This document shows, in pieces, positions 19,255 through 55,361 of a stretch of 64,000 nucleotides of DNA; position 1 is the first letter of the stretch, and each line of letters opens with the position of its first letter. The translations under genes were made by a program, and so were the position numbers. The DNA lies in assembly GCA_049322915.1 (NCBI GenBank), contig JBMOPW010000045.1:104206-168205 (forward strand). The letters run 5' to 3'. Under the pieces are notes generated by a model. That model did not search any database and had not been told where the DNA came from. It saw nothing but the letters and a program-made list of their open reading frames with translations. The stretch comes from Candidatus Zhuqueibacterota bacterium. Its GTDB lineage: Bacteria > Zhuqueibacterota > Zhuqueibacteria > Thermofontimicrobiales > Thermofontimicrobiaceae.

Positions 19255-19774
19255 TTTTGAGCCCTCATGTTATTATGGTGTTCAGGAACAGTATTTGAAA
19301 TATATAGTGAAAGCGTTTCCGGCAATGGGCGGGTACTTTTGAATCAGCCCGGACAATTCACTCGCCCGAACGGGCGCGGCTATTTTCTGCGATGAAAAAA
19401 AGTTCAGCAGATGACGAAAAGGGGATTTGCGCACCATTCGAATTGCAATACGCCAGACCAGACATGCTTCACTCGACTTCAATGTGTCGGTAATGTGTCC
19501 TATTTTACTATAATCTCATTAAAATTGCAAGATAATATTTCAGCTCTCTGAAAATAATTGTAACTGATTCGTCATTTAAAGTATCCAAAGATTGCCGACC
19601 GATCGTTCGGGATATTCATCCCAAACATTGCGGCTGTTCCGGGACATACGTCGCAGGCATTACACTTGCTGGATGTGTGTCCAGCAAGGGCAGGAAATAG
19701 TATTTCAGTACTTCATTCCCCCAAAAAAAAATTTCAAACAATTGAAACAAATTCAATTTTACATCGTTTCATCG

Positions 19775-45921: not shown

Positions 45922-45950
45922 TTGACTTTATTGAATTGCTCGTTTATATT
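45922..45950 (+). promoter_or_regulatory. Sigma-70-type promoter for the CHAT-STAND-TPR gene
   Basis: TTGACT-N17-TATATT, 79 bp upstream of ATG 46029 (GGGAGG RBS). Confidence 0.55.
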
Positions 45951-46028
45951 GTGACCAATTCTCATTTCACTTTGCCCGTAACCCACCTTAAAATCTGTCA
46001 AAGCTCAATCCAGGGAGGCGATCCAGCC

Positions 46029-49000
46029 ATGTCGCTATTTCTTGATATCCTCATGGAACTTGTACCTGAAATGCTGTTCCGCGCGATCAAAGACTACATC
46101 GACATCCGCAAAGGGGAGTTGAAAGATTCTGCCTTTGAAAAATTTTACCGAACCTTAGTCGTTTCGTTCATCGACACGCAAAAGGGATTGGACCAGGGGC
46201 AGGCAAAGAAATTTTTCGCCAGCGATGCCGCGCTCGATGGCGTGCTGGCGTATCTCTATCGCTTCACCGATCCTGATGCGGCGATTCGTGACAAATGCCA
46301 GCAGGCACTGTGTAGTCTGGCAGATCGATATAAAATCTCAGGCGACGCGAAATTTCCGACTGAAAAATTGGTGCAACGCTTTTTAGTTGATCTCGAAACC
46401 GAGCTGCGCCACGATGTCAATAAATCGCTGCTGCCCTTTTTCACTGATCTTCGGGATGACCATGCCAGAATCGTGCAGAAGCTGGATAGCCTGACCGAAC
46501 AGATCGAAGCGGATCGCCAGGCGCGTGAGCAACGCGCCACCCAGATCGATGCCAGCGGCGAAAAAGTGACGGTTCATGGGCAATTGATTTACGATTCCAG
46601 GGAAAAGCCTGAGCCACAACTACCCCTGCCCGTCATTCATTGCACGCTTGAAGCCATCGATAAAGACAATGACCGCTATCGCTCCGTTATTACCAACGAT
46701 AAAGGCAAGGAACTCCACAAACACAATTTCACGCTCAAACGCGACGATGTCTTTCTGCTCAATGCCAATCACTGGCTGGAACATGATGGTTTGCAGGATT
46801 ATCGCAGCCAGATCAAAATTGATTCGAACAGGACGTTTACCCAGCGCGTGGGGAATCATTATTTTGAACTGATTATGGGCGGAAATGGGACGCTGAAGAA
46901 ACATCTCAACACCAATGGTGAATTGGAACGTGGCTTTCAATTTATGTTGGAACTCGATCCCGAAGCTGAATTGCTGTGGCAGGCGCCGTGGGAATTTCTG
47001 CACGATAGCGAGGAGTTTTTGGGACTGTCGGGCAAAGTGCACCTGGTGCGGACGCCTCTCGGCGCGGGCGCGCTGGCGGTCAAGCCCATTCCCCAGCCGC
47101 TGAGAATTCTGGTCGTGATCTCCAATCCTGCGGATAAGGGCGAGTTCGATGGTGAGCGGGCGCTGTCATCGATTCAGGAAGCCGTGGATTACGCGCGGCG
47201 CAATGGCTGGGTCGAGCTGGAATATCTGGAGGATGCCACATTTCTCAATTTTCAGCAGCGACTGGCAGCGTTTCAGCCGCATGTCGTGCATTACATCGGT
47301 CATGGCGGCAGGAATCCCGACGATAAAAAATCGATCAAATCCCCTTATTCAGGCATGCCTGGCGAAACCTACCTCGCGTTTGAAAATGAGAACGGCGATC
47401 TCGATCCCCTCTATGGCAAGCATCTGCAACAATTGTTGGCAAACGCATCATCGGTGCAACTGCTGGTGTTATCGGGCTGCATGACGGGACAGACGGCTGC
47501 CACCGATGCGCTGGCTGGCGTGGGAACTGCCTTGCTCAGGGAACAACTTCCCGCGCTGGTGGTGATGCAGTATTCGGTGCTGGTGGATACCGCCATCCAA
47601 TTTGCCAAAATATTTTACGAGCGAATCAGTAGCGGCAAGCGGCTGAGCCAGGCGCTGACCGAAGTGCGCCAGGTTTTGGCAAAGGGACGTGAACATCGGG
47701 CCGACTGGGGCATTCCTGCGCTGTATCTTCGTTCGGCAGAACTGCAGCTCATCGATCCCAGGGCGAAAAAGCGGGAACCCGAAATCACGGTCGAGCGCAC
47801 CGCCATCGGCGATCTGCCCGTAGTGGCAGGATTTGTGGGAAGAGTGAAAGAACTGCGGCGCTTGCGGGAGACCGTGAAACATCCCCAGCAGCCTGTGATC
47901 TACATCTGGGGACTGGGCGGCATCGGCAAGACCAGCCTCACGGCCAAGCTCATCGAAAAGCTGGAACAGGAACACGCTATTGACGCAAGGCGGGTGATTC
48001 GCTGCAACGAAATCGAGCCGACCTTTGCTGCAATAGCTCAAAAGGTTGGCGATTTCATTAAATTGCAAGGGATGGCAGGACATGCCGAGGCAGGCATCAT
48101 GCTGCAGGATAGCCGCTACGATATCGAGACCAGGGTTTCCCTGCTCAACCAGGTCATCAAAGATCGGCGCTGCCTGTTCGTGTTCGATAATTTCGAATCC
48201 CTGTTCAGCGAAAAAATCCCGCAGGTGGGACGGCTGAACGATCCCGAGCTGGAAACGTTTTTCCAGACGCTGTTCAGCCATAACTGGCGCAGCACCTTTT
48301 TGTTCACCTGCCGCTACCAGTGGAATCTGTTGCTGGAAGAGCCAGGCATGCACCGCTACGCCTGCGGCTTGCCCCGCGCCAATGCGCTGGTGCTGCAGTT
48401 GCAGGGACTCTCGCCTGCGCAGACCCGCATGTTGATGAAGAACCTGCCCGCGCTGGGCAAACTGACGTTCATTGAACAGACCCAGGTGCTGCCGCTGGTG
48501 TTGGGACATCCCCATACCGTGCATCTTTTTGACGCCTATCTTGGTCAATATGGATTAAAATCAGTGTTGCAGGATGATGAAATTACCCGCCGTAGAGACG
48601 TTACATGTAACGTCTCTACACCAACCGAAATTATCCAAAATTTGGGCGCCTATTTCCTCGATGGTCTCTGGGCAAAATTGAACGAACAGGAACGGGATAT
48701 CCTGGGCCTGTTGTCCGTGTTCCGCACCAGCCTGGCCGAGGACGGCTTGCGGCAACTGGCGCCCGATTTAGCCGCGCTGACGACGCTGCGCAACTACTCC
48801 CTGGTGCAACGCATGACCAGCGATACAGAGACCCGCCCTGACTACGGCGTGCACCCTGTGGTGCGCGGCTATGTGGATCGCAAATTCAGCGCGGAGCAGA
48901 TGAAAGCATATCACATGGCTGCGGTGGATTTTTATGTGGCGCAACAGGCAGCCAGATTTCCAAAATCAGATAAGATTGATCAATGGACGCCCGCACTATT

Positions 49001-49994
49001 AGCCCAGATAGCCGAACTCGCCGCTCAACAGGGCAATACCCCGCTGGCGCTGAGCCTGACCGAGGGCTTGCTGGAAATGCACCATCATCTGTTTGCGGCT
49101 GGGGAGTATGAACAGGCTGGCGCTTTGGTAACAGATTTTTATGATTTTCTTGCAATGATTGGTCGCCGTGAAGTCGCTAAAAATCTGCTGCGCCAGAGCA
49201 TTGCTTCACGAGAAGGATTCAACAAATACGTCGCCATGGGCAACCTGGCGACGCTGCTGAAAAACGAAGGCAAATGGCAGGAGGCGCTGGCGACGCATCA
49301 GGAATGTATTGACTATTTCGATAAAGAAGATGCAAAACAGCAAATGGCTCAGGTTTTAAGCCAGCAGGCGCAAATCTACCAGGAACGCGGCGAGTATGAG
49401 CAGGCGCTGGAGCTGGAGCGGAAGGCGATTGAAATTAAGGAAGAAATAAAAGATGAAACTGTCGTTATTCAATACTACCGCATTGCGCAACTGCTGGATA
49501 GAATGGAACGCTACGACGAGGCGCTGACCGCAGGCGAAACCGCGCTGGCAAAAGTCCGCCAGATCAGCAATGCCCAATTGGAAGCCGCCTGCCTGCACCA
49601 GCTCGGCATGACGCTGAACAAGCTCAACCGACCGCAGCAGGCGTTTGAGCGATTTCAGGAGAGTTTACAAATCACAGAAAGACTCGGCGACCGCGCAGGG
49701 CAGGCGGATACGCTGGGAGAGATGGGAAAATTATTATTGAATACTGGACAATTTGATGCGGCTATTCATCTATTTCAAAAGGCAATTGAGATTTATTTCG
49801 AGCAAAACAATCCTGTCAAAGCTGCCATTGTTTTGGAAGCAATTGGATTCACTTTCGAACAACAAGGTCATTTTCAGGAAGCCCTGGAAAAGTATCAGGA
49901 GGCACTGCGGTTGTTTAAGCAATATAGCCATGCAGGAGATGTGGCTGGTACAGAAAGAAATATTGCACGGGTTAAAGCGAAACTGGGGCGGTAG
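46029..49994 (+). CDS. NLR-like protein: helical N-terminus, CHAT caspase-like protease, STAND (NB-ARC-like) NTPase, TPRs
   Basis: PWEFL, HYIGHG, LSGC, WGIPALY (CHAT); GLGGIGKT, LFVFDNFE, FTCR, GHP, VHPVVR (STAND); C-terminal TPRs. Confidence 0.88.
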   Translation: MSLFLDILMELVPEMLFRAIKDYIDIRKGELKDSAFEKFYRTLVVSFIDTQKGLDQGQAKKFFASDAALDGVLAYLYRFTDPDAAIRDKCQQALCSLADRYKISGDAKFPTEKLVQRFLVDLETELRHDVNKSLLPFFTDLRDDHARIVQKLDSLTEQIEADRQAREQRATQIDASGEKVTVHGQLIYDSREKPEPQLPLPVIHCTLEAIDKDNDRYRSVITNDKGKELHKHNFTLKRDDVFLLNANHWLEHDGLQDYRSQIKIDSNRTFTQRVGNHYFELIMGGNGTLKKHLNTNGELERGFQFMLELDPEAELLWQAPWEFLHDSEEFLGLSGKVHLVRTPLGAGALAVKPIPQPLRILVVISNPADKGEFDGERALSSIQEAVDYARRNGWVELEYLEDATFLNFQQRLAAFQPHVVHYIGHGGRNPDDKKSIKSPYSGMPGETYLAFENENGDLDPLYGKHLQQLLANASSVQLLVLSGCMTGQTAATDALAGVGTALLREQLPALVVMQYSVLVDTAIQFAKIFYERISSGKRLSQALTEVRQVLAKGREHRADWGIPALYLRSAELQLIDPRAKKREPEITVERTAIGDLPVVAGFVGRVKELRRLRETVKHPQQPVIYIWGLGGIGKTSLTAKLIEKLEQEHAIDARRVIRCNEIEPTFAAIAQKVGDFIKLQGMAGHAEAGIMLQDSRYDIETRVSLLNQVIKDRRCLFVFDNFESLFSEKIPQVGRLNDPELETFFQTLFSHNWRSTFLFTCRYQWNLLLEEPGMHRYACGLPRANALVLQLQGLSPAQTRMLMKNLPALGKLTFIEQTQVLPLVLGHPHTVHLFDAYLGQYGLKSVLQDDEITRRRDVTCNVSTPTEIIQNLGAYFLDGLWAKLNEQERDILGLLSVFRTSLAEDGLRQLAPDLAALTTLRNYSLVQRMTSDTETRPDYGVHPVVRGYVDRKFSAEQMKAYHMAAVDFYVAQQAARFPKSDKIDQWTPALLAQIAELAAQQGNTPLALSLTEGLLEMHHHLFAAGEYEQAGALVTDFYDFLAMIGRREVAKNLLRQSIASREGFNKYVAMGNLATLLKNEGKWQEALATHQECIDYFDKEDAKQQMAQVLSQQAQIYQERGEYEQALELERKAIEIKEEIKDETVVIQYYRIAQLLDRMERYDEALTAGETALAKVRQISNAQLEAACLHQLGMTLNKLNRPQQAFERFQESLQITERLGDRAGQADTLGEMGKLLLNTGQFDAAIHLFQKAIEIYFEQNNPVKAAIVLEAIGFTFEQQGHFQEALEKYQEALRLFKQYSHAGDVAGTERNIARVKAKLGR
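48592..48619. repeat. Perfect 28-bp GTAG-type palindrome (REP-like) inside the CDS
   Basis: GTAGAGACGTTACA|TGTAACGTCTCTAC is its own reverse complement. Confidence 0.85.
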
Positions 49995-50017
49995 GGCAAA
50001 TTGGCAATTTGCGTTAC
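49991..50017. repeat. Imperfect GTAG-type palindrome (REP-like) overlapping the stop codon
   Basis: GTAGGGCAAATTGGCAATTTGCGTTAC. Confidence 0.65.
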
Positions 50018-50037
50018 GTTTGTTGCAGGAGTCATTT

Positions 50038-50880
50038 TCGTCCCAAAGGGACGACTGATAATAGCCCATCCCGATTGATCGGGATGGGATCAAAAAGGAT
50101 AAAGGTATTTTCAAAGTCCCGTCAGGGACGAATGAATAACAATGCAACAAAACATCCCACGTTGCGGAATTATGTTTCGACAAAATTCATTCGTCCCTAC
50201 GGGACTTGGGCTTGGGCGTGGTCTTTCATCTCTTTTCCCAAGAATAAATTCTTGGGCTATTGTCAAATGTCCCTGTTGGACAAAATGAAAACAACCCATT
50301 GATGTGTCAACGGGATTTGTTCGTCCCAAAGGGACGGAATGAAAATAGCCCATCCCGATTGATCGGGATGGGATCAAAAAGGATAAAGGTATTTTCAAAG
50401 TCCCGCCAGGGACGAATGAATAACAATGCAACAAAACATCCCACGTTGCGGAATTATGTTTCGCCAAAATTCATTCGTCCCTACGGGACTTGGGCTTGGT
50501 CTTTCATCTCTTTTCCCAAGAATGAATTCTTGGGCTATTGTCAATTGTCCCTGCGGGACAAAATGAAAACAACCCATTGATGTGTCAACGGGATTTGTTC
50601 GTCCCGAAGGGACGGAATGAAAATAGCCCATCCCGATTGATCGGGATGGGATCAAAAAGGATAAAGGTATTTTCAAAGTCCCGCCAGGGACGAATGAAAT
50701 AATGATATGATGAAAATGATTGATTCGTGATGATGCCGCCAAAATTCATTCGTCCCTACGGGACTTGGGCGTGGTCTTTCATCTCTTTTCCCAAGAATAA
50801 ATTCTTGGGCTATGGTCAATCGTCCCTTTGGGATGGAATGAAAATAGCCCATCCCGATTGATCGGGATGGGATCGAAAAG
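50038..50880. repeat. Array of alternately inverted ~100-bp multi-hairpin modules (REPIN/BIME-like), ~280-bp period
   Basis: A modules 50038-50136, 50321-50420, 50599-50698 and partial 50820-50880; inverted B modules 50186-50285, 50470-50563, 50745-50835. Confidence 0.92.
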
Positions 50881-50937
50881 AATGAAAACAATAACCATCG
50901 AAAAATTATTCATATAAAAAATAGGAAGGAAAATAAC

Positions 50938-51390
50938 ATGGCACATTCCTATGTGAGCATATTAATCCATTACATCTTCAGCACCAAACATCGGGAAAAA
51001 AATATCTCTCCTGAAATTCAAGATCGCGTTTGGGCATACATGGGCGGGATTGCACGGGAAAACAATATGAAAGCATTATCCATCGGCGGCGTCGAAGAAC
51101 ACGCACATGTTTTGTTATCGTTACCGGCGACAATTTCTATTTCCAAAGGCGTGCAACTCATCAAAGGCGGTTCGTCCAAATGGATTCATGATACGTTTCC
51201 GACACTTAATGAATTTGTTTGGCAAGTTGGATATGGCGCTTTCAGCGTGAGTATTTCTCATGTTGATGAAACGATCAACTATATTGAAAATCAAAGAGAG
51301 CATCATCGACACAAAACTTTTCAGGAAGAATATTTGGCGTTTTTGAAGAAGCACGCTTTTGAATATGATGAAAACTATATCTGGGGATAA
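50938..51390 (+). mobile_element. tnpA: Stand-alone IS200/IS605-family TnpA / REP-associated Y1 HUH nuclease
   Basis: HYIFSTKHR, HUH motif HAH, KGGSSKW, WQVGYGAFSVS, catalytic YIENQ; no tnpB downstream. Confidence 0.9.
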
Positions 51391-51540
51391 CGTGCAATTG
51401 ACTCAACCTGACTCCCTGATCGCTGGAACTACATTCAGCGCGGGCAATAGCTGGGACGTATGTCCCCGAATCGGCGCACCGTTCGGGATGAATATCCCAA
51501 ACGATCGAGAGGCCGCTGGCAGAGGCGTGTTCCACGGATG

Positions 51541-51579
51541 AACGAAGGTCCTCACCCTGATGGCGAGGGCCTTCGTTTT
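51541..51579. terminator. Intrinsic terminator between convergent genes
   Basis: AACGAAGGTCCTC...GAGGGCCTTCGTTTT. Confidence 0.65.
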
Positions 51580-51606
51580 ATGTGGATTAAATTATGGAGG
51601 AAGGAG

Positions 51607-54600
51607 CTATCGCATTAAAATCAGTTTCCGACTCTGGACGTAAGTCCGTGGGAGCAGCGCTGCACTGTTCTCCCGGCGTGATAAAACCGGCGAGTGATCC
51701 GTTGCCTCCAGCCGATAAAGATATATCCCACTGGAAATTCCCCGGGCATCCCAGTTACAACGATGAATTCCTGCTGTCAGGCGTTCAGTTATCAGGGATG
51801 TCACCTCTTCGCCCATCATGTTGTAAATTGTAAGCGTGACAAAACACGGTCTCGGAAGAGCAAATTCGATGGTCGTGCTCGGGTTGAACGGATTGGGATA
51901 GTTTTGATTCAGCGAAAACGACTCAGGAATGGGATTCATCGCCGGCTGTTCCACCTCAGTCAGGACAGCTTTGGAGAAAGGCGAGGTGCTACCCTCAGCG
52001 TTAATTGCAATGGCCGTCACATTGGAAAAAGGCCCATGAATGGAACCGTTCCAGATGAAATTGCCGGCCGGATCGGACATGGTTTCGCCCTGGAAAATTT
52101 CACCCTCGTCCTCAGAGTCCGTGTAGATTTCGATCATGGCGTCAGCGATGGCTGTGCCTGAGACGGAAGAACCAGTGACCGACGTGATGGTCGGCGCGCT
52201 GATCACATTGGCCCCGCCTGAATCGTAGAGTATGCCGGATTGTTGATTGTGAGCGATGCTGTTATGGCTGATCCGGTTGCGGAGCGGCTCTGCGCCATAG
52301 ATACGCACCCCGGCGCCGCGATTGAACCAGATGAAATTGTTCCGGATGCAGTTATCGTACGATTCATCCGCGATGAACACGCCGTCGAATTCATTGCCCG
52401 TGAGTGGATCGATGAATTCCGGCGCCATGCCGATCCAGTTATTCTGGATGCTACTGCGGCAGGACTCTAAAATGTAAATGCCATATCTATTTCCACCGAT
52501 CCGGTTATCGAACACCGCCACGCTGTCGCATTGATTTTGAATACAGATGCCGCCATAATTACCGTTGGGAATGGGCGCATCCCCCAACCGATTGAGTCCG
52601 ACGATGTTGCCCAGGATGTTCACGTGATGCGAAGAATCCGAGACAAATATCCCGCCGTTGGTATTCCCGGAAATGACATTGCGGAACGTATCCATCGGCG
52701 CGATGACCACAAACTGGCTGTGATTCCCAATCCACACGCCATAGCCATTGGGCGCCGGGCTGAAACCATTGAAATCGGCCCCGATGTAGCAGCCGCGCAG
52801 GTGGCCGCCATCGACATTGTCCATGCTGACGCCGGTGCTGTAGAAATTATTGATGGTCAATCCATGAATGAAAACCATCGAACCTGTCACATTCAGGCCG
52901 GAGACGTATTGCCCTGCGTTGCTGCCGCTTATAACTATCTCCGGGCCGTGAGGATTGCAGTCCCTGCCAATAAATGCTGCCTGTGAAAAACCATTCAGAA
53001 ACAAGTCATTATCTGAGATGGTTGGTAATTGACTGAGCGGAGAGATGATCCAGACACCGACATCCGCATCGTGGCCGGGGACGCCCTCGGGAATGGCGAA
53101 TAAAATTGTGTCAGGGCCGATAGAGGAGTTGGCGCTGTTGATTGCGTCGCGCAATGATCCGGGGCCGGCGTCCATGCAATTGGTAACGAGCAGACTGCCT
53201 GTCGTGGGACCGCTTAAAGGATACATGATGGCGAATGTTGAGAGATGATCGGTTTCGCCCCGAATGACATTGACATCGGTATACAGATGGGTTGTGATTT
53301 CAGCCCATTGCCCGCTGGGTTCATCGAATCGCATCAGTTTCAGGGTTGTTTCGTGATCGCCCAGACCGGCGTCGCTGTAAGTGATCTCCATGCTAATCAC
53401 ACCGGAATAAGTGGCCGTTGTGCTGATGAGATAATAACCGGGATTGCCTTCCGGGATCACCACGTGATATGCCGGGGGAATTGGGCCAATGGGTTCAATG
53501 GCGGCGTCGGTATTGCCCGGATTGATCACCTGAGCGAACATCAATTGAATCGCGCTGGTGACATCAACGATGACATTGACGCCGGCCGGCGTGTTGGTCG
53601 GCGATGTGGAAGAAATTGTGAACACAGCGTCGCTGATATCGAAGGGCTGCCCATCCGTGGCGTCCGAGACTTTGACGCAGCAATTGCTGGACGGGGTATT
53701 CGGCACAGTCCATTGGTACGACGGCGAACCGGAGTAGGAACCGGCAATGGTCGAATATGTGGCCCCGCCATTGGTCGAGTACTCAATCTTCACCGCTCCA
53801 CTGAACAGATGGGTATTCCAGACAATGTAACGCGGAGAACCCACATTCCAATTTTCACCGCCGTTGGGCACATCGAGTTTGATGTACGGATTGGAGGTAA
53901 TTTCAAATGAGGCGTTGCTGACGTCGGAAATCACACTCGCCTGCAAGACGGAAAGGCGCACGAGGCAATTGGTGGACGGCTCATCCGGCAATGTCCAGGT
54001 ATAAGAGCCGGCCGTGCCGTGATTGGTCTGATAGGTAACGAAGGAATAATTCGCTCCGCCATCGGTCGAGTACTCGATTTTCACATCGTAATTATCGATC
54101 CCCTGTCCTGTCCAGGTGATGGCCTGAGGCGTGTCCGCTTCCCATTGTTCGCCGCCGTTCGGGTTGGTGACAGTGATACTCGATGTCGATGTTCCGCCCT
54201 GTCCGACAACTTCATCGATACCGACCTGTCCATCGATCAGGCCGGTCATGGCGCCCATGATTTGAATCGTGATCTCTTTCATCGTGTAGTTGGTGGGAAA
54301 AATGGAACTCGACGACCAGTCGAATGTCAGCGTGTTCCACACAGCGTTGGAGTTAAACCAGGAGCTGTATGTCAGTGGTTGATTTAAAAGCTGGTCATTG
54401 TAAAACGTGCGGTCCTTTGCCAGATCATTGTCATACACCGTAACGATGAGGTTGGCGTACAGGGTGGAGCTGACCGTCATATTTTCGGTGAGCCTGACCG
54501 ATATGCTGGTTACGCTCTGCCAGTCGGTTTCGCCCGATAAATCCGGCGAACTGAACTTCATGATCCAGTAGGTTCCGGAGGAACCAGTAATGCCGTGTCC

Positions 54601-54843
54601 GCCGCTGGTGAAAAAGAGCAATGAACCATTGCCCGACCCGGTTGTGGGATAGTTGACCAGACTGGTCCATGACAATGTGAAATTCGATGAGTACGGACCA
54701 TTACCGCTTTCATCGTATGCCCCCTGCATGGTCCAGCCCTGTTTGGTGCCATCGTTGAAGTCAAATTCTTGCGCACCTGACTGGACTGCCAGCCCCATTC
54801 CCATTGCCAAAATGAGAATGAGTTTTAAATGATTCATTTTCAT
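51607..54843 (-). CDS. Large secreted protein with Ig-like repeats, right-handed beta-helix and T9SS-type C-terminal domain
   Basis: Signal peptide; two PNGGExW repeats; VTNCMDAGPGSLRDAI; NVISGN/GN.IG beta-helix turns; NYPNPFNP. Confidence 0.82.
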   Translation of the reverse strand: MKMNHLKLILILAMGMGLAVQSGAQEFDFNDGTKQGWTMQGAYDESGNGPYSSNFTLSWTSLVNYPTTGSGNGSLLFFTSGGHGITGSSGTYWIMKFSSPDLSGETDWQSVTSISVRLTENMTVSSTLYANLIVTVYDNDLAKDRTFYNDQLLNQPLTYSSWFNSNAVWNTLTFDWSSSSIFPTNYTMKEITIQIMGAMTGLIDGQVGIDEVVGQGGTSTSSITVTNPNGGEQWEADTPQAITWTGQGIDNYDVKIEYSTDGGANYSFVTYQTNHGTAGSYTWTLPDEPSTNCLVRLSVLQASVISDVSNASFEITSNPYIKLDVPNGGENWNVGSPRYIVWNTHLFSGAVKIEYSTNGGATYSTIAGSYSGSPSYQWTVPNTPSSNCCVKVSDATDGQPFDISDAVFTISSTSPTNTPAGVNVIVDVTSAIQLMFAQVINPGNTDAAIEPIGPIPPAYHVVIPEGNPGYYLISTTATYSGVISMEITYSDAGLGDHETTLKLMRFDEPSGQWAEITTHLYTDVNVIRGETDHLSTFAIMYPLSGPTTGSLLVTNCMDAGPGSLRDAINSANSSIGPDTILFAIPEGVPGHDADVGVWIISPLSQLPTISDNDLFLNGFSQAAFIGRDCNPHGPEIVISGSNAGQYVSGLNVTGSMVFIHGLTINNFYSTGVSMDNVDGGHLRGCYIGADFNGFSPAPNGYGVWIGNHSQFVVIAPMDTFRNVISGNTNGGIFVSDSSHHVNILGNIVGLNRLGDAPIPNGNYGGICIQNQCDSVAVFDNRIGGNRYGIYILESCRSSIQNNWIGMAPEFIDPLTGNEFDGVFIADESYDNCIRNNFIWFNRGAGVRIYGAEPLRNRISHNSIAHNQQSGILYDSGGANVISAPTITSVTGSSVSGTAIADAMIEIYTDSEDEGEIFQGETMSDPAGNFIWNGSIHGPFSNVTAIAINAEGSTSPFSKAVLTEVEQPAMNPIPESFSLNQNYPNPFNPSTTIEFALPRPCFVTLTIYNMMGEEVTSLITERLTAGIHRCNWDARGISSGIYLYRLEATDHSPVLSRRENSAALLPRTYVQSRKLILMR

Positions 54844-55361
54844 AGCATCACCTCGTATTGTTGAACATGATTTCGATTGATTTGTCAATCATCGGTTTTT
54901 CTACTATTCCATTTTTACTAATTTCTGAAAAATCAACCCGCTCCAATTCCATGGATTGAAGCATTGCTCATCCATTCATTGTCGAAAGGTGTGTCTGAGG
55001 TCCCGGCGATGTGCGCCGATCGAATCCTTTCCCAACGCCCGGATCAGGAGGACGCGCCGTCGTTGCTTTTTTTGTGCTGCGCCGTTGTTTGGGACAGGGA
55101 TTCACAGCACACGCGAATTTCCCCTGATGGCAGAAGGATATGATGAAGCATTTTCATGTTGATCCATTCCTTGAGAATCGTTTCATTCAGCCCGGTGAGA
55201 CGCGCCGCGCATGGCATGGTGATCATGTTGCTGCACTGGCAGATAAATTGAAATTTACTTGTTCAGGTCAGGGCTCGCCGAAATGTCTGGCTGAGACGAT
55301 TGCCGATTTTGGCCAGCATCAGGATAATTCTTGCATAATATAAAAAAAATGATTATGATAG

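Follow-up and report, generated by a model that had tools for sequence, protein, structure and literature searches.

In a 64,000-nt stretch of the genome of a Candidatus Zhuqueibacterota bacterium (GenBank assembly GCA_049322915.1, contig JBMOPW010000045.1, positions 104,206 to 168,205; hereafter the window), a gene for a Y1/HUH nuclease is preceded by an array of alternately inverted modules with three hairpins each. We consider it likely that this array is a cluster of repetitive extragenic palindromic (REP)-type repeats, akin to a REPtron or to bacterial interspersed mosaic elements (BIMEs), and that the nuclease, an enzyme of TnpA-Y1 subclass 1.2 by its signature, acts in trans on the module hairpins in single-stranded DNA (ssDNA). 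As far as the literature was searched, this family of REP-type repeats is not described in print. The reading is carried by what was observed in the window and in other genomes, namely the architecture of the module and the covariation of its stems, the association of modules with homologous genes across phyla, the dispersal of gene-less module pairs and the sharp ends of these elements.

An alternating array of covarying three-hairpin modules

The array spans positions 50036-50888 of the window and consists of three pairs of modules joined tail to tail, hereafter dyads, and a truncated fourth module. When aligned in one orientation, all full modules, each ~97 nt long, contain the same parts in the same order: a first hairpin (h1), a joint, a central hairpin (h2), a linker, a third hairpin (h3) and a tail. 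Hairpin h1 is formed by GTCCC, a 3-4-nt loop and GGGAC, and the joint behind it ends in a conserved AATAGCCC that is followed by h2 and a linker of ~25 nt, after which the GTCCC-loop-GGGAC design returns as h3 and a GAATGAA tail closes the module. The central stem comes in two versions, with the arms CCCATCCCGAT and ATCGGGATGGG in modules of type A and CCCAAGAAT and ATTCTTGGG in the oppositely oriented modules of type B. A repeat search of the window recovered the 67-nt head segment (h1 and h2) in four copies, at 50037, 50321, 50599 and 50820, and the reverse-complemented design in three copies.

The first dyad pairs module A1 (50036-50138, plus strand), whose h2 has 11 bp, with module B1 (50184-50285, minus strand), whose 9-bp h2 is unlike that of A; the intra-dyad spacer between them (50139-50183) measures 49 nt from motif to motif (50137-50185). 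A head-to-head inter-dyad spacer (50286-50318) follows, with a hairpin of its own that is terminator-like on the minus strand, and belongs to a repeat family, D2, of two copies that are 97% alike. The second dyad is made of A2 (50319-50422, plus strand) and B2 (50468-50563, minus strand), and the third of A3 (50597-50700, plus strand) and B3 (50743-50838, minus strand) on either side of a 46-nt spacer (50699-50744). With the covariance model R1, introduced below, A1 scores 69.5 bits (E 1.7e-11), B1 95.8, A2 65.2, B2 108.5, A3 65.8 and B3 101.2 bits, so that the six full modules lie between 65 and 108 bits (E 1e-10 to 1e-19). The truncated module A4 (50818-50888, plus strand) comprises h1 and h2 only (30.3 bits, E 0.009, with model R2) and has one hairpin, its own h1, in common with B3; in place of its linker and h3 stands an AT-rich leader (50889-50937).

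Units 1 and 2 of the array, 284 and 278 bp long, are 95-97% identical with the DNA between the dyads included, and the two dyads are a recent tandem duplication. The tail-to-tail spacers have lengths of 49, 49 and 46 nt; a single base separates spacers 1 and 2, which are, given the duplication, one spacer copied, while spacer 3 is unrelated to both. Unit 3 is joined head to head with the gene's own truncated module. Spacer 3 shares an exact 12-nt match with the 3′ end of the nuclease gene, a weak signal that 9 of 500 shuffles equal, and the best scores of spacers 1 and 2 against the gene, both on the minus strand, are equalled by 13 and 8 of 500 shuffles; a derivation of the spacers as relics of the gene would be suggestive at most. 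Contigs of four DNA runs show the assembly breaking inside the array. A 249-nt contig of DNA run X2, ~88% alike, places an A-type tail directly at the start codon, which is the canonical succession of h3 and ATG; it probably stems from another organism and was not used as evidence.

Covariance model R1 rests on six modules, all of the source genome, the A modules being left out because MAFFT misplaced the longer A stem, and model R2 was rebuilt from 117 aligned R1 matches, 12 from the source genome and 105 from outside. On these 117 modules, 98.0% of the cells are paired, compared with 38-52% after a shift of the partners by 1-3 columns in the same alignment, which was fitted to the model and thus favours pairing. 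All 19 of 19 base pairs change on both sides, and none of 500 shuffles reaches the observed covariation values. Cells with G-U or U-G pairs (~21 of 2160) are fewer than the 44 mismatched cells, a scarcity that fits a double-stranded DNA palindrome and would be unusual for a functional RNA. The arms of h1 and h3 are identical within 45 of 107 modules (shuffled mean 20.7) and at most one base apart in 89 of 107 (shuffled mean 62.3), counts that are inflated by the relatedness of the modules. Structure, not sequence, is conserved in the module.

The modules might instead be structured-RNA genes or cis-acting RNA parts, such as terminators, stabilisers or a small RNA controlling the nuclease gene; REPs in E. 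coli are known to affect mRNA ends. A consensus scan places seven terminator-like hairpins on the minus strand of the array region, and over the whole scanned region, both strands included, eight were found where 1.9 are expected. The Rfam family RF01687 (Acido-Lenti-1) also matches here. Its gathering score of 37 is exceeded in the array by B2 alone (40.6 bits at 50515-50560), the six others reaching 21-32 bits, with B1 at 23.1 bits (50237-50282) and B3 at 32.2 bits, and a second match above the gathering score in the source genome lies on contig C21 (39.2 bits). On the B strand, h2, a GGCUA joint and h1 fill the whole 46-position model, which nevertheless covers less than half of the module. 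Rfam files the motif as a small-RNA gene of two phyla with no function assigned, and a published table of candidate motifs marks it 'RNA? y' (Weinberg et al. 2010, PMC2864571, Table 1), whereas in the present data it looks like a component of a DNA repeat that accompanies a nuclease gene across many phyla. Against an RNA role stand the presence of modules in both orientations as inverted dyads and their opposed placement on the two sides of the gene, the rarity of G-U pairs (~1% of cells), a partner from an ssDNA enzyme family, and the one promoter-like site that the consensus scan found in the region where 2.6 are expected. We hold an RNA role of the modules to be very unlikely, and RF01687 is probably explained as a REP-type DNA repeat.

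A preceding interpretation of the window from its letters alone, hereafter the sequence-only reading, had described much of this correctly. Sequence reading, repeat search and alignment recovered every element of the A and B design and of the alternating array at the positions it had given; the central stem that differs between A and B while remaining paired reflects conserved structure; and the near-identity of spacers 1 and 2, the unrelated third spacer and the hairpin shared by the last B and the partial A module were all confirmed, as were the HAH and YxxxQ motifs of the nuclease, the lack of tnpB and the one-sided position of the array. An exact match to an already described REP family would have counted against that reading, and this holds in part, as the described family RF01687 matches the inner part of the module above its gathering score; its suggestion that the array might be read as RNA is disfavoured by G-U pairs that are rarer than mismatches.

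A nuclease gene flanked by modules across phyla

The nuclease gene (50938-51390, plus strand) encodes a protein of 150 aa with the motifs HAH, WQ and YIENQREHH, which matches PF01797 with 89.2 bits (cut-off 23) and the IS200/IS605 transposase model NF033573 with 63.8 bits (cut-off 55). In a 19-sequence alignment, H55 and H57 of the HUH motif, Y115-x3-Q119, H122 and H123, the WQ residues W95 and Q96, and F128, E131, Y143, D144 and Y147 of the C-terminal tail are invariant; the HuH motif, EHAH in the window, has D, E or N as its first and A, V, I, T or C as its middle residue. The closest solved structures are ISDra2 TnpA (2xm3, E 2e-7) and IS608 TnpA (2a6m, E 2.4e-5), and the PDB matches at E<=0.01 do not include E. 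coli RayT. No tnpB-sized open reading frame lies between the flanking genes (end 49994, start 51607). A GC-rich hairpin with a T run, seen in the fold at 51540-51579 on the plus strand and absent from the consensus-scan list, is the likely terminator of the nuclease gene.

Signature, length, WQ, tail and copy pattern place the window protein in TnpA-Y1 subclass 1.2, an assignment made from sequence features. By analogy, we take it to be a single-copy Y1/HUH ssDNA nuclease of the IS200 branch, with putative hairpin binding, cleavage, ssDNA substrate and oligomeric state modelled on those of characterised enzymes. Its relatives number 5125 at E<=1e-10, most of the 120 listed being exactly 150 aa long, and many carry the JGI label 'REP element-mobilizing transposase RayT'. 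The source genome contains three Y1 paralogues that are 35-41% identical to one another, and the other two bring weaker modules of their own. A quick maximum-likelihood tree was computed with four canonical plasmid IS200/IS605 TnpAs and 44 further rows, comprising 40 of the 80 homologue loci described below (39 were left out, and L036 was dropped for a stop in its translation), the three paralogues and a Persicobacter sequence. Every one of these rows, that is, 40 of 40 homologues, all three paralogues and Persicobacter, has Y---Q--HH, and all 44 form a clade split from the four plasmid TnpAs with an SH-aLRT (approximate likelihood-ratio test) support of 99. The tree mixes phyla, and the row nearest to the window gene is a Verrucomicrobiae sequence of 66% identity. 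On plasmids, one of 72,556 records has a relative above 32% identity, the rest being at most 31% identical; this sole relative, 46% identical, resides on a 632-kb Persicobacter replicon and has canonical flanking modules.

The association of modules with the gene was assessed in 80 loci fetched with gene homologues, a sample of the homologues drawn from Verrucomicrobiota, Planctomycetota, Acidobacteriota, Bacteroidota and other phyla. Model R1 gave 208 matches in these loci at E<1, and 105 matches outside the source genome at E<=1e-4 (117 in all). Model R2, which is partly circular on the 80 loci as it was made from matches there, whereas R1 is not, gave 220 matches at E<=1e-3 and at least one module in 76 of the 80 loci, with none at this threshold in L068, L071, L088 and L094. 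In 50 of 78 loci, the end of a plus-strand module lies no more than 60 nt from the start codon (median gap 9 nt), and in 55 of 78 a minus-strand module starts no more than 60 nt from the stop codon (median gap 7 nt). Both flanks bear inverted modules, the canonical arrangement, in 40 of 76 loci, and at least one flank does in 63 of 76. Four or more modules are present in 21 of the 80 loci, indicating that arrays beside the gene are common. At the window locus, modules are found 5′ of the gene only, a model search of the locus having found none 3′ of it. Masking of the ribosome-binding site by h3 was dropped as an explanation, the median gap of 9 nt to the start codon placing h3 too far upstream. 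In one further locus (G112:C104:10415-12058), two gene copies of identical score and their flanking modules recur with an 830-bp period, which represents a tandem duplication of module-gene-module.

Dispersed dyads, proposed mechanism and rival explanations

In the source genome (6.25 Mb, 45 contigs), 12 full modules occur at only three loci, namely the window array, one dyad on contig C21 and two dyads on contig C30, and no Y1 gene lies near the latter two loci; the sequence-only reading had proposed such a whole-genome search, and the pattern of the array is far beyond chance. Model R2 returned 14 matches at E<=0.01 in the whole genome, all in module loci or beside a paralogue, and its background rate is negligible. 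Across these loci h2 takes five different sequences, all of which pair. Hairpins of the GTCCC/GGGAC type number 24 in the genome, and with 18 of them inside the three module loci, the idea that lone hairpins form a simple REP population was rejected. The dyads on C30 (L009, C30:64766-65387) lie in a 386-bp tandem duplication that includes non-module flank, with a third, partial copy of the flank after it.

Five other genomes were searched whole, and four of them have one or two gene copies. G002 (L030) holds 22 modules and two gene homologue matches, G004 (L018) 8 modules and one match, G005 (L035) 17 modules and one match, and G001 (L031) 23 modules and seven diverged matches. In G003 (L029), at least 131 modules accompany one full gene and one distant fragment, the count being a lower bound that comes from 150 scored out of 1398 candidates. 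With so many modules to one full gene, the modules behave like REPINs (REP doublets forming hairpins).

The copies in G003 are mostly lone, gene-less inverted dyads. In the 20 best-scoring dyads, a choice that biases the identity figures, similarity begins and ends sharply at the outer foot of h1 on both sides, and mean pairwise identity is 0.96 in h1, 0.94 in h3, 0.80 in the joint, 0.70 in h2 and 0.50 in the linker, with 0.54 for the unrelated flanking DNA. Two or three types of h2 are mixed within dyads, the linker keeps its length (17-23 nt) and not its sequence, and the central spacer ranges from 0 to ~25 nt and is unrelated between copies. Because the hairpins are kept while the linker is randomised, a recent burst of MITEs (miniature transposable elements with inverted repeats) does not fit, as it would have preserved the linkers as well. 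Within a dyad, the modules are oriented like those bracketing the gene, so the dyad is most simply taken as a gene-less derivative of module-gene-module. Several of the G003 dyads L128-L147 sit between the halves of a ~15-nt outer inverted repeat, GAAGCGTGTGCAAAA and its complement, whose right half adjoins the dyad and whose left half lies 0-35 nt off, which hints at dyad insertion into another palindrome or at a larger composite element.

The cognate element of the enzyme would thus comprise two near-identical 5-bp hairpins, h1 and h3, each with a TGAA-type tail, a central h2 of free sequence that is anchored by the AATAGCCC...GGG joint, and an h2-h3 linker fixed in length and free in sequence. 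We propose that the hairpins extrude in single-stranded DNA such as the lagging-strand template, that the enzyme may bind h1 and h3, which are of one design and evolve together, and that it may cut and rejoin near the outer foot of h1, the point at which the elements end sharply. Dyads would thereby be mobilised or duplicated in trans, and local arrays could arise by tandem duplication or by cleavage and rejoining between neighbouring modules. The sequence-only reading had anticipated a REPtron-like system with unusually elaborate modules, in keeping with the same module being found around homologous Y1 genes of other phyla and with the dispersed gene-less dyads; no observation shows the building, shuffling or reading of the array by the nuclease that it had further proposed.

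A more far-reaching version, which we judge quite unlikely, holds that the IS200 branch, through subclass 1.2, independently made a long-lived partnership of the kind formed by REPINs and REP-associated tyrosine transposases (RAYTs) in at least eight phyla. The enzyme would maintain the modules by repeated cleavage and rejoining or by templated recopying at h1 and h3, keeping the hairpins and the distances between them uniform at more than 100 sites; linker and central spacer would be swappable cargo, arrays would be joined and thus shuffled by the nuclease, and RF01687 would be DNA, not RNA.

The variable spacers also bring to mind an information store like a CRISPR or a retron, in which the nuclease acquires or exchanges spacers that are then read as ssDNA or RNA, and spacer 3, unlike spacers 1 and 2, as well as the G003 central spacers and linkers that vary between copies, could be viewed in this light. 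However, spacers 1 and 2 are one spacer that was duplicated with 280 bp of surrounding DNA, spacer length is unfixed at 0 to 49 nt, and most copies are lone dyads rather than arrays. The array sequence has no match in either the phage or the plasmid collection, where the sequence-only reading had proposed to search, and no accessory gene is conserved beside the Y1 gene, whose neighbours here encode a CHAT-TPR and a secreted beta-helix protein. Unlike in a CRISPR array, successive repeats point in opposite directions, two spacers out of three are copies of each other and there are no cas-like neighbours. The exchangeable spacers postulated by the sequence-only reading are not supported, spacers 1 and 2 being a tandem copy and spacers in other genomes measuring 0 to ~25 nt. 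Nothing suggests that the spacers carry information, and we find such a store barely conceivable.

An ordinary selfish insertion sequence (IS) of the IS200 type would account for several of the same observations. Module-gene-module would then be the autonomous element, the dyads would be short-lived MITEs, and the array would reflect nested or adjacent insertions beside a decaying master copy. Inverted modules on both sides of the gene across phyla (40 of 76 loci), a gene tree at odds with taxonomy, a same-genus genome lacking an orthologue, the NF033573 score above its cut-off, and the two identical gene copies 830 bp apart in G112 are in line with this explanation, as is, weakly, the 12-nt match of spacer 3 to the 3′ end of the gene, as from an internal deletion. 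Yet dispersed gene copies of near-identical sequence were not observed; in the source genome the paralogues are 35-41% identical, and the other genomes, four of five, hold one or two copies. Relatives on plasmids amount to that single record in 72,556, and the G003 linkers have diverged like random flank around hairpins that are 94-96% identical, which indicates old copies under constraint. Furthermore, the ends of canonical IS200/IS605 elements such as IS608 and ISDra2 are not known to be inverted repeats. A selfish insertion sequence is in our view unlikely.

Several points weigh against the REPtron-like reading that we prefer. Besides the partial circularity of R2 and the bias of the 20 selected dyads, the binding, cleavage and ssDNA substrate proposed for subclass 1.2 are all taken over from IS608/ISDra2 TnpA and E. 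coli TnpA-REP. Co-occurrence within the phylum, which the sequence-only reading proposed to test between the modules and this enzyme clade, is positive and loose. Among 121 sampled genomes (modules at E<=1e-5, homologue at E<=1e-20), modules were found in 41 and a homologue in 56; 28 genomes had both, 13 modules without a homologue found, 28 a homologue without modules found, and 52 neither, counts for which at most 34 candidates per genome were scored under stricter filters and in which many genomes are fragmented and relatives are not independent. Modules are thus present in 28 of 56 genomes with a homologue (27 of 55 if the unpublished genome G093, one of the 28 with both, is left out) and in 13 of 65 without one; where the homologue reaches E<1e-60, they are present in six of seven genomes other than G000. 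G018, a genome 99% complete, has 22 modules and no homologue at E<=1e-20. In this genome, two module arrays bracket a 168-aa non-Y1 gene (L175, G018:C59:3000-8000), forming an orphan array.

Inheritance is likewise at odds with the preferred reading. The gene tree does not follow taxonomy. The same-genus genome G118 (94% complete) carries three modules, and its closest match to the gene is 37% identical, so that an orthologue is missing; the mixture of phyla in the tree and the missing orthologue argue that the unit spreads horizontally and is not simply inherited vertically. Compared with the window region 48000-53600, G118 and the same-family genome G041 gave repeat-sized matches only, with no readable synteny. 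In the source genome, the module population is tiny and far from classical REP abundance, and at the window gene the proximal module has no h3 and a right-hand module is absent, features by which the window gene itself is probably immobile here.

Known relatives, neighbouring features and significance

The passages describing subclass 1.2 give a median length of 148 aa, the WQ pair, the Y motif YIKNQKEHH, the HuH motif DH[IV]H, a C-terminal tail, 1.7 copies per genome that are 36% identical to one another, a distribution mostly in Cyanobacteria and Bacteroidetes, and the entry 'REP: no' (Quentin et al. 2018, PMC6006769). The present family shares the length (150 aa here), WQ, Y---Q--HH, the tail, the low copy number, a paralogue identity of 35-41%, and its distinctness from canonical IS200. 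It departs from the published picture in the modules that flank it in 76 of 80 loci, where no REPs were reported, in its occurrence also in Acidobacteriota, Verrucomicrobiota, Planctomycetota and others, and in the window's EHAH in place of DH[IV]H. A literature search outside the subscription journals found no published link between subclass 1.2 and these modules. In the parts of a preprint dealing with the subject, REPINs are tied only to RAYT Groups 2 and 3 (Bertels and Rainey, bioRxiv 10.1101/2021.07.10.451892). The passages on 'IS200 Group 3' depict a group without duplicates or plasmid copies, with abundant flanking 16-mers (21 occurrences), that is called RAYT-like (Bertels, Gallie and Rainey 2017, PMC5581495); by comparison of descriptions only, this group is probably the present clade, although those passages describe no repeat architecture.

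With the REPtron and REPIN-RAYT systems, namely TnpA-REP and its BIMEs in E. coli and the REPINs of Pseudomonas (PMC2817692, PMC3116915), the present family shares a single-copy Y1/HUH gene bracketed by inverted palindromic repeats (in 40 of 76 loci, with repeats on the 5′ side only in the window), gene-less inverted doublets dispersed in high number in G003, where the source genome has 12 full modules at three loci, a repeat variant of its own for each paralogue, and local clusters of alternating orientation with two repeat subtypes. The alternation of the A and B types of h2 resembles that of the Y and Z REP types in E. coli BIMEs. In contrast, the enzyme here is of class 1 (Y---Q), not of class 2 (Y---NP) as in REPtrons, and the repeat is a ~97-nt three-hairpin compound without a GT[AG]G foot instead of a palindrome of 20-40 nt. 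The linkers here vary freely, and the gene tree disagrees with taxonomy, unlike the mostly vertical gene inheritance of RAYTs. IS608 and ISDra2 TnpA have in common with our enzyme the HUH and Y---Q motifs and, putatively for ours, the recognition of hairpins near the element ends, and h1 and h3 lie on the same strand in direct orientation, like left-end and right-end hairpins. Canonical IS200/IS605 elements, which tend to be present in several near-identical copies and frequently lie on plasmids or carry tnpB, differ in that the present protein is at most 31% identical to their TnpAs and is encoded by a single-copy gene without tnpB, while the ends here are inverted three-hairpin modules and the relatives are almost never on plasmids.

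At the place of the missing right-hand module lies a copy of another repeat, 'family 2' (51408-51513, plus strand), ~95 nt long with three hairpins inside a GATCG/CGATC closing stem; a second copy in the window occupies 19568-19705 on the minus strand. Two of its hairpins have 8 bp and one has 5-6 bp, giving a cloverleaf-like shape, and many copies are followed by a conserved ~25-nt tail. A search with nhmmer gave 114 matches at E<1e-3 on 31 contigs of the source genome, with several more in the same-genus genome G118, while the 80 homologue loci held no match and Rfam gave none. Family 2 as the missing right-hand module was rejected on the absence from the 80 loci and because RF01687 misses it, and family 2 probably stands outside the system. 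The source genome has yet another Y1 gene, its fourth, of class-2 RAYT type and ~25 kb upstream of the window (C45:79110-79740); it has the motifs NHYH and YILYNP, matches PF01797 with 35 bits, and has neither a family 2 copy nor a module beside it.

Directly upstream of the array, the gene at 45936-49994 (plus strand) encodes a 1352-aa protein with a caspase-like CHAT domain, a STAND-type NTPase region and many TPRs, an architecture often discussed for defence or signalling. On the other side, 51607-54888 (minus strand) encodes a secreted beta-helix protein of 1093 aa, whose C-terminal sorting domain for type IX secretion is a Por_Secre_tail; the DNA of this sorting domain is repeated across relatives of the source genome and is the source of most cross-genome DNA matches.

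Several consequences follow if the preferred reading, a REPtron-like cluster served in trans by a subclass 1.2 enzyme, holds. Genome annotation would stop labelling such repeats as small-RNA genes; it is at these repeats that the assemblies of carrier genomes break. Bench testing is feasible in cultured carriers, of which Kaistella haifensis DSM 19056, Gelidibacter maritimus F6074, Algoriphagus sp. 4150 and Persicobacter sp. JZB09 are known. Acido-Lenti-1, an orphan since 2010, would become part of a REP-type DNA repeat. Subclass 1.2, reported without a partner DNA element, would gain a cognate element in which two equal hairpins are combined with a conserved joint and a linker of constant length, and the REPIN/RAYT concept would no longer be confined to class 2 enzymes of Proteobacteria.

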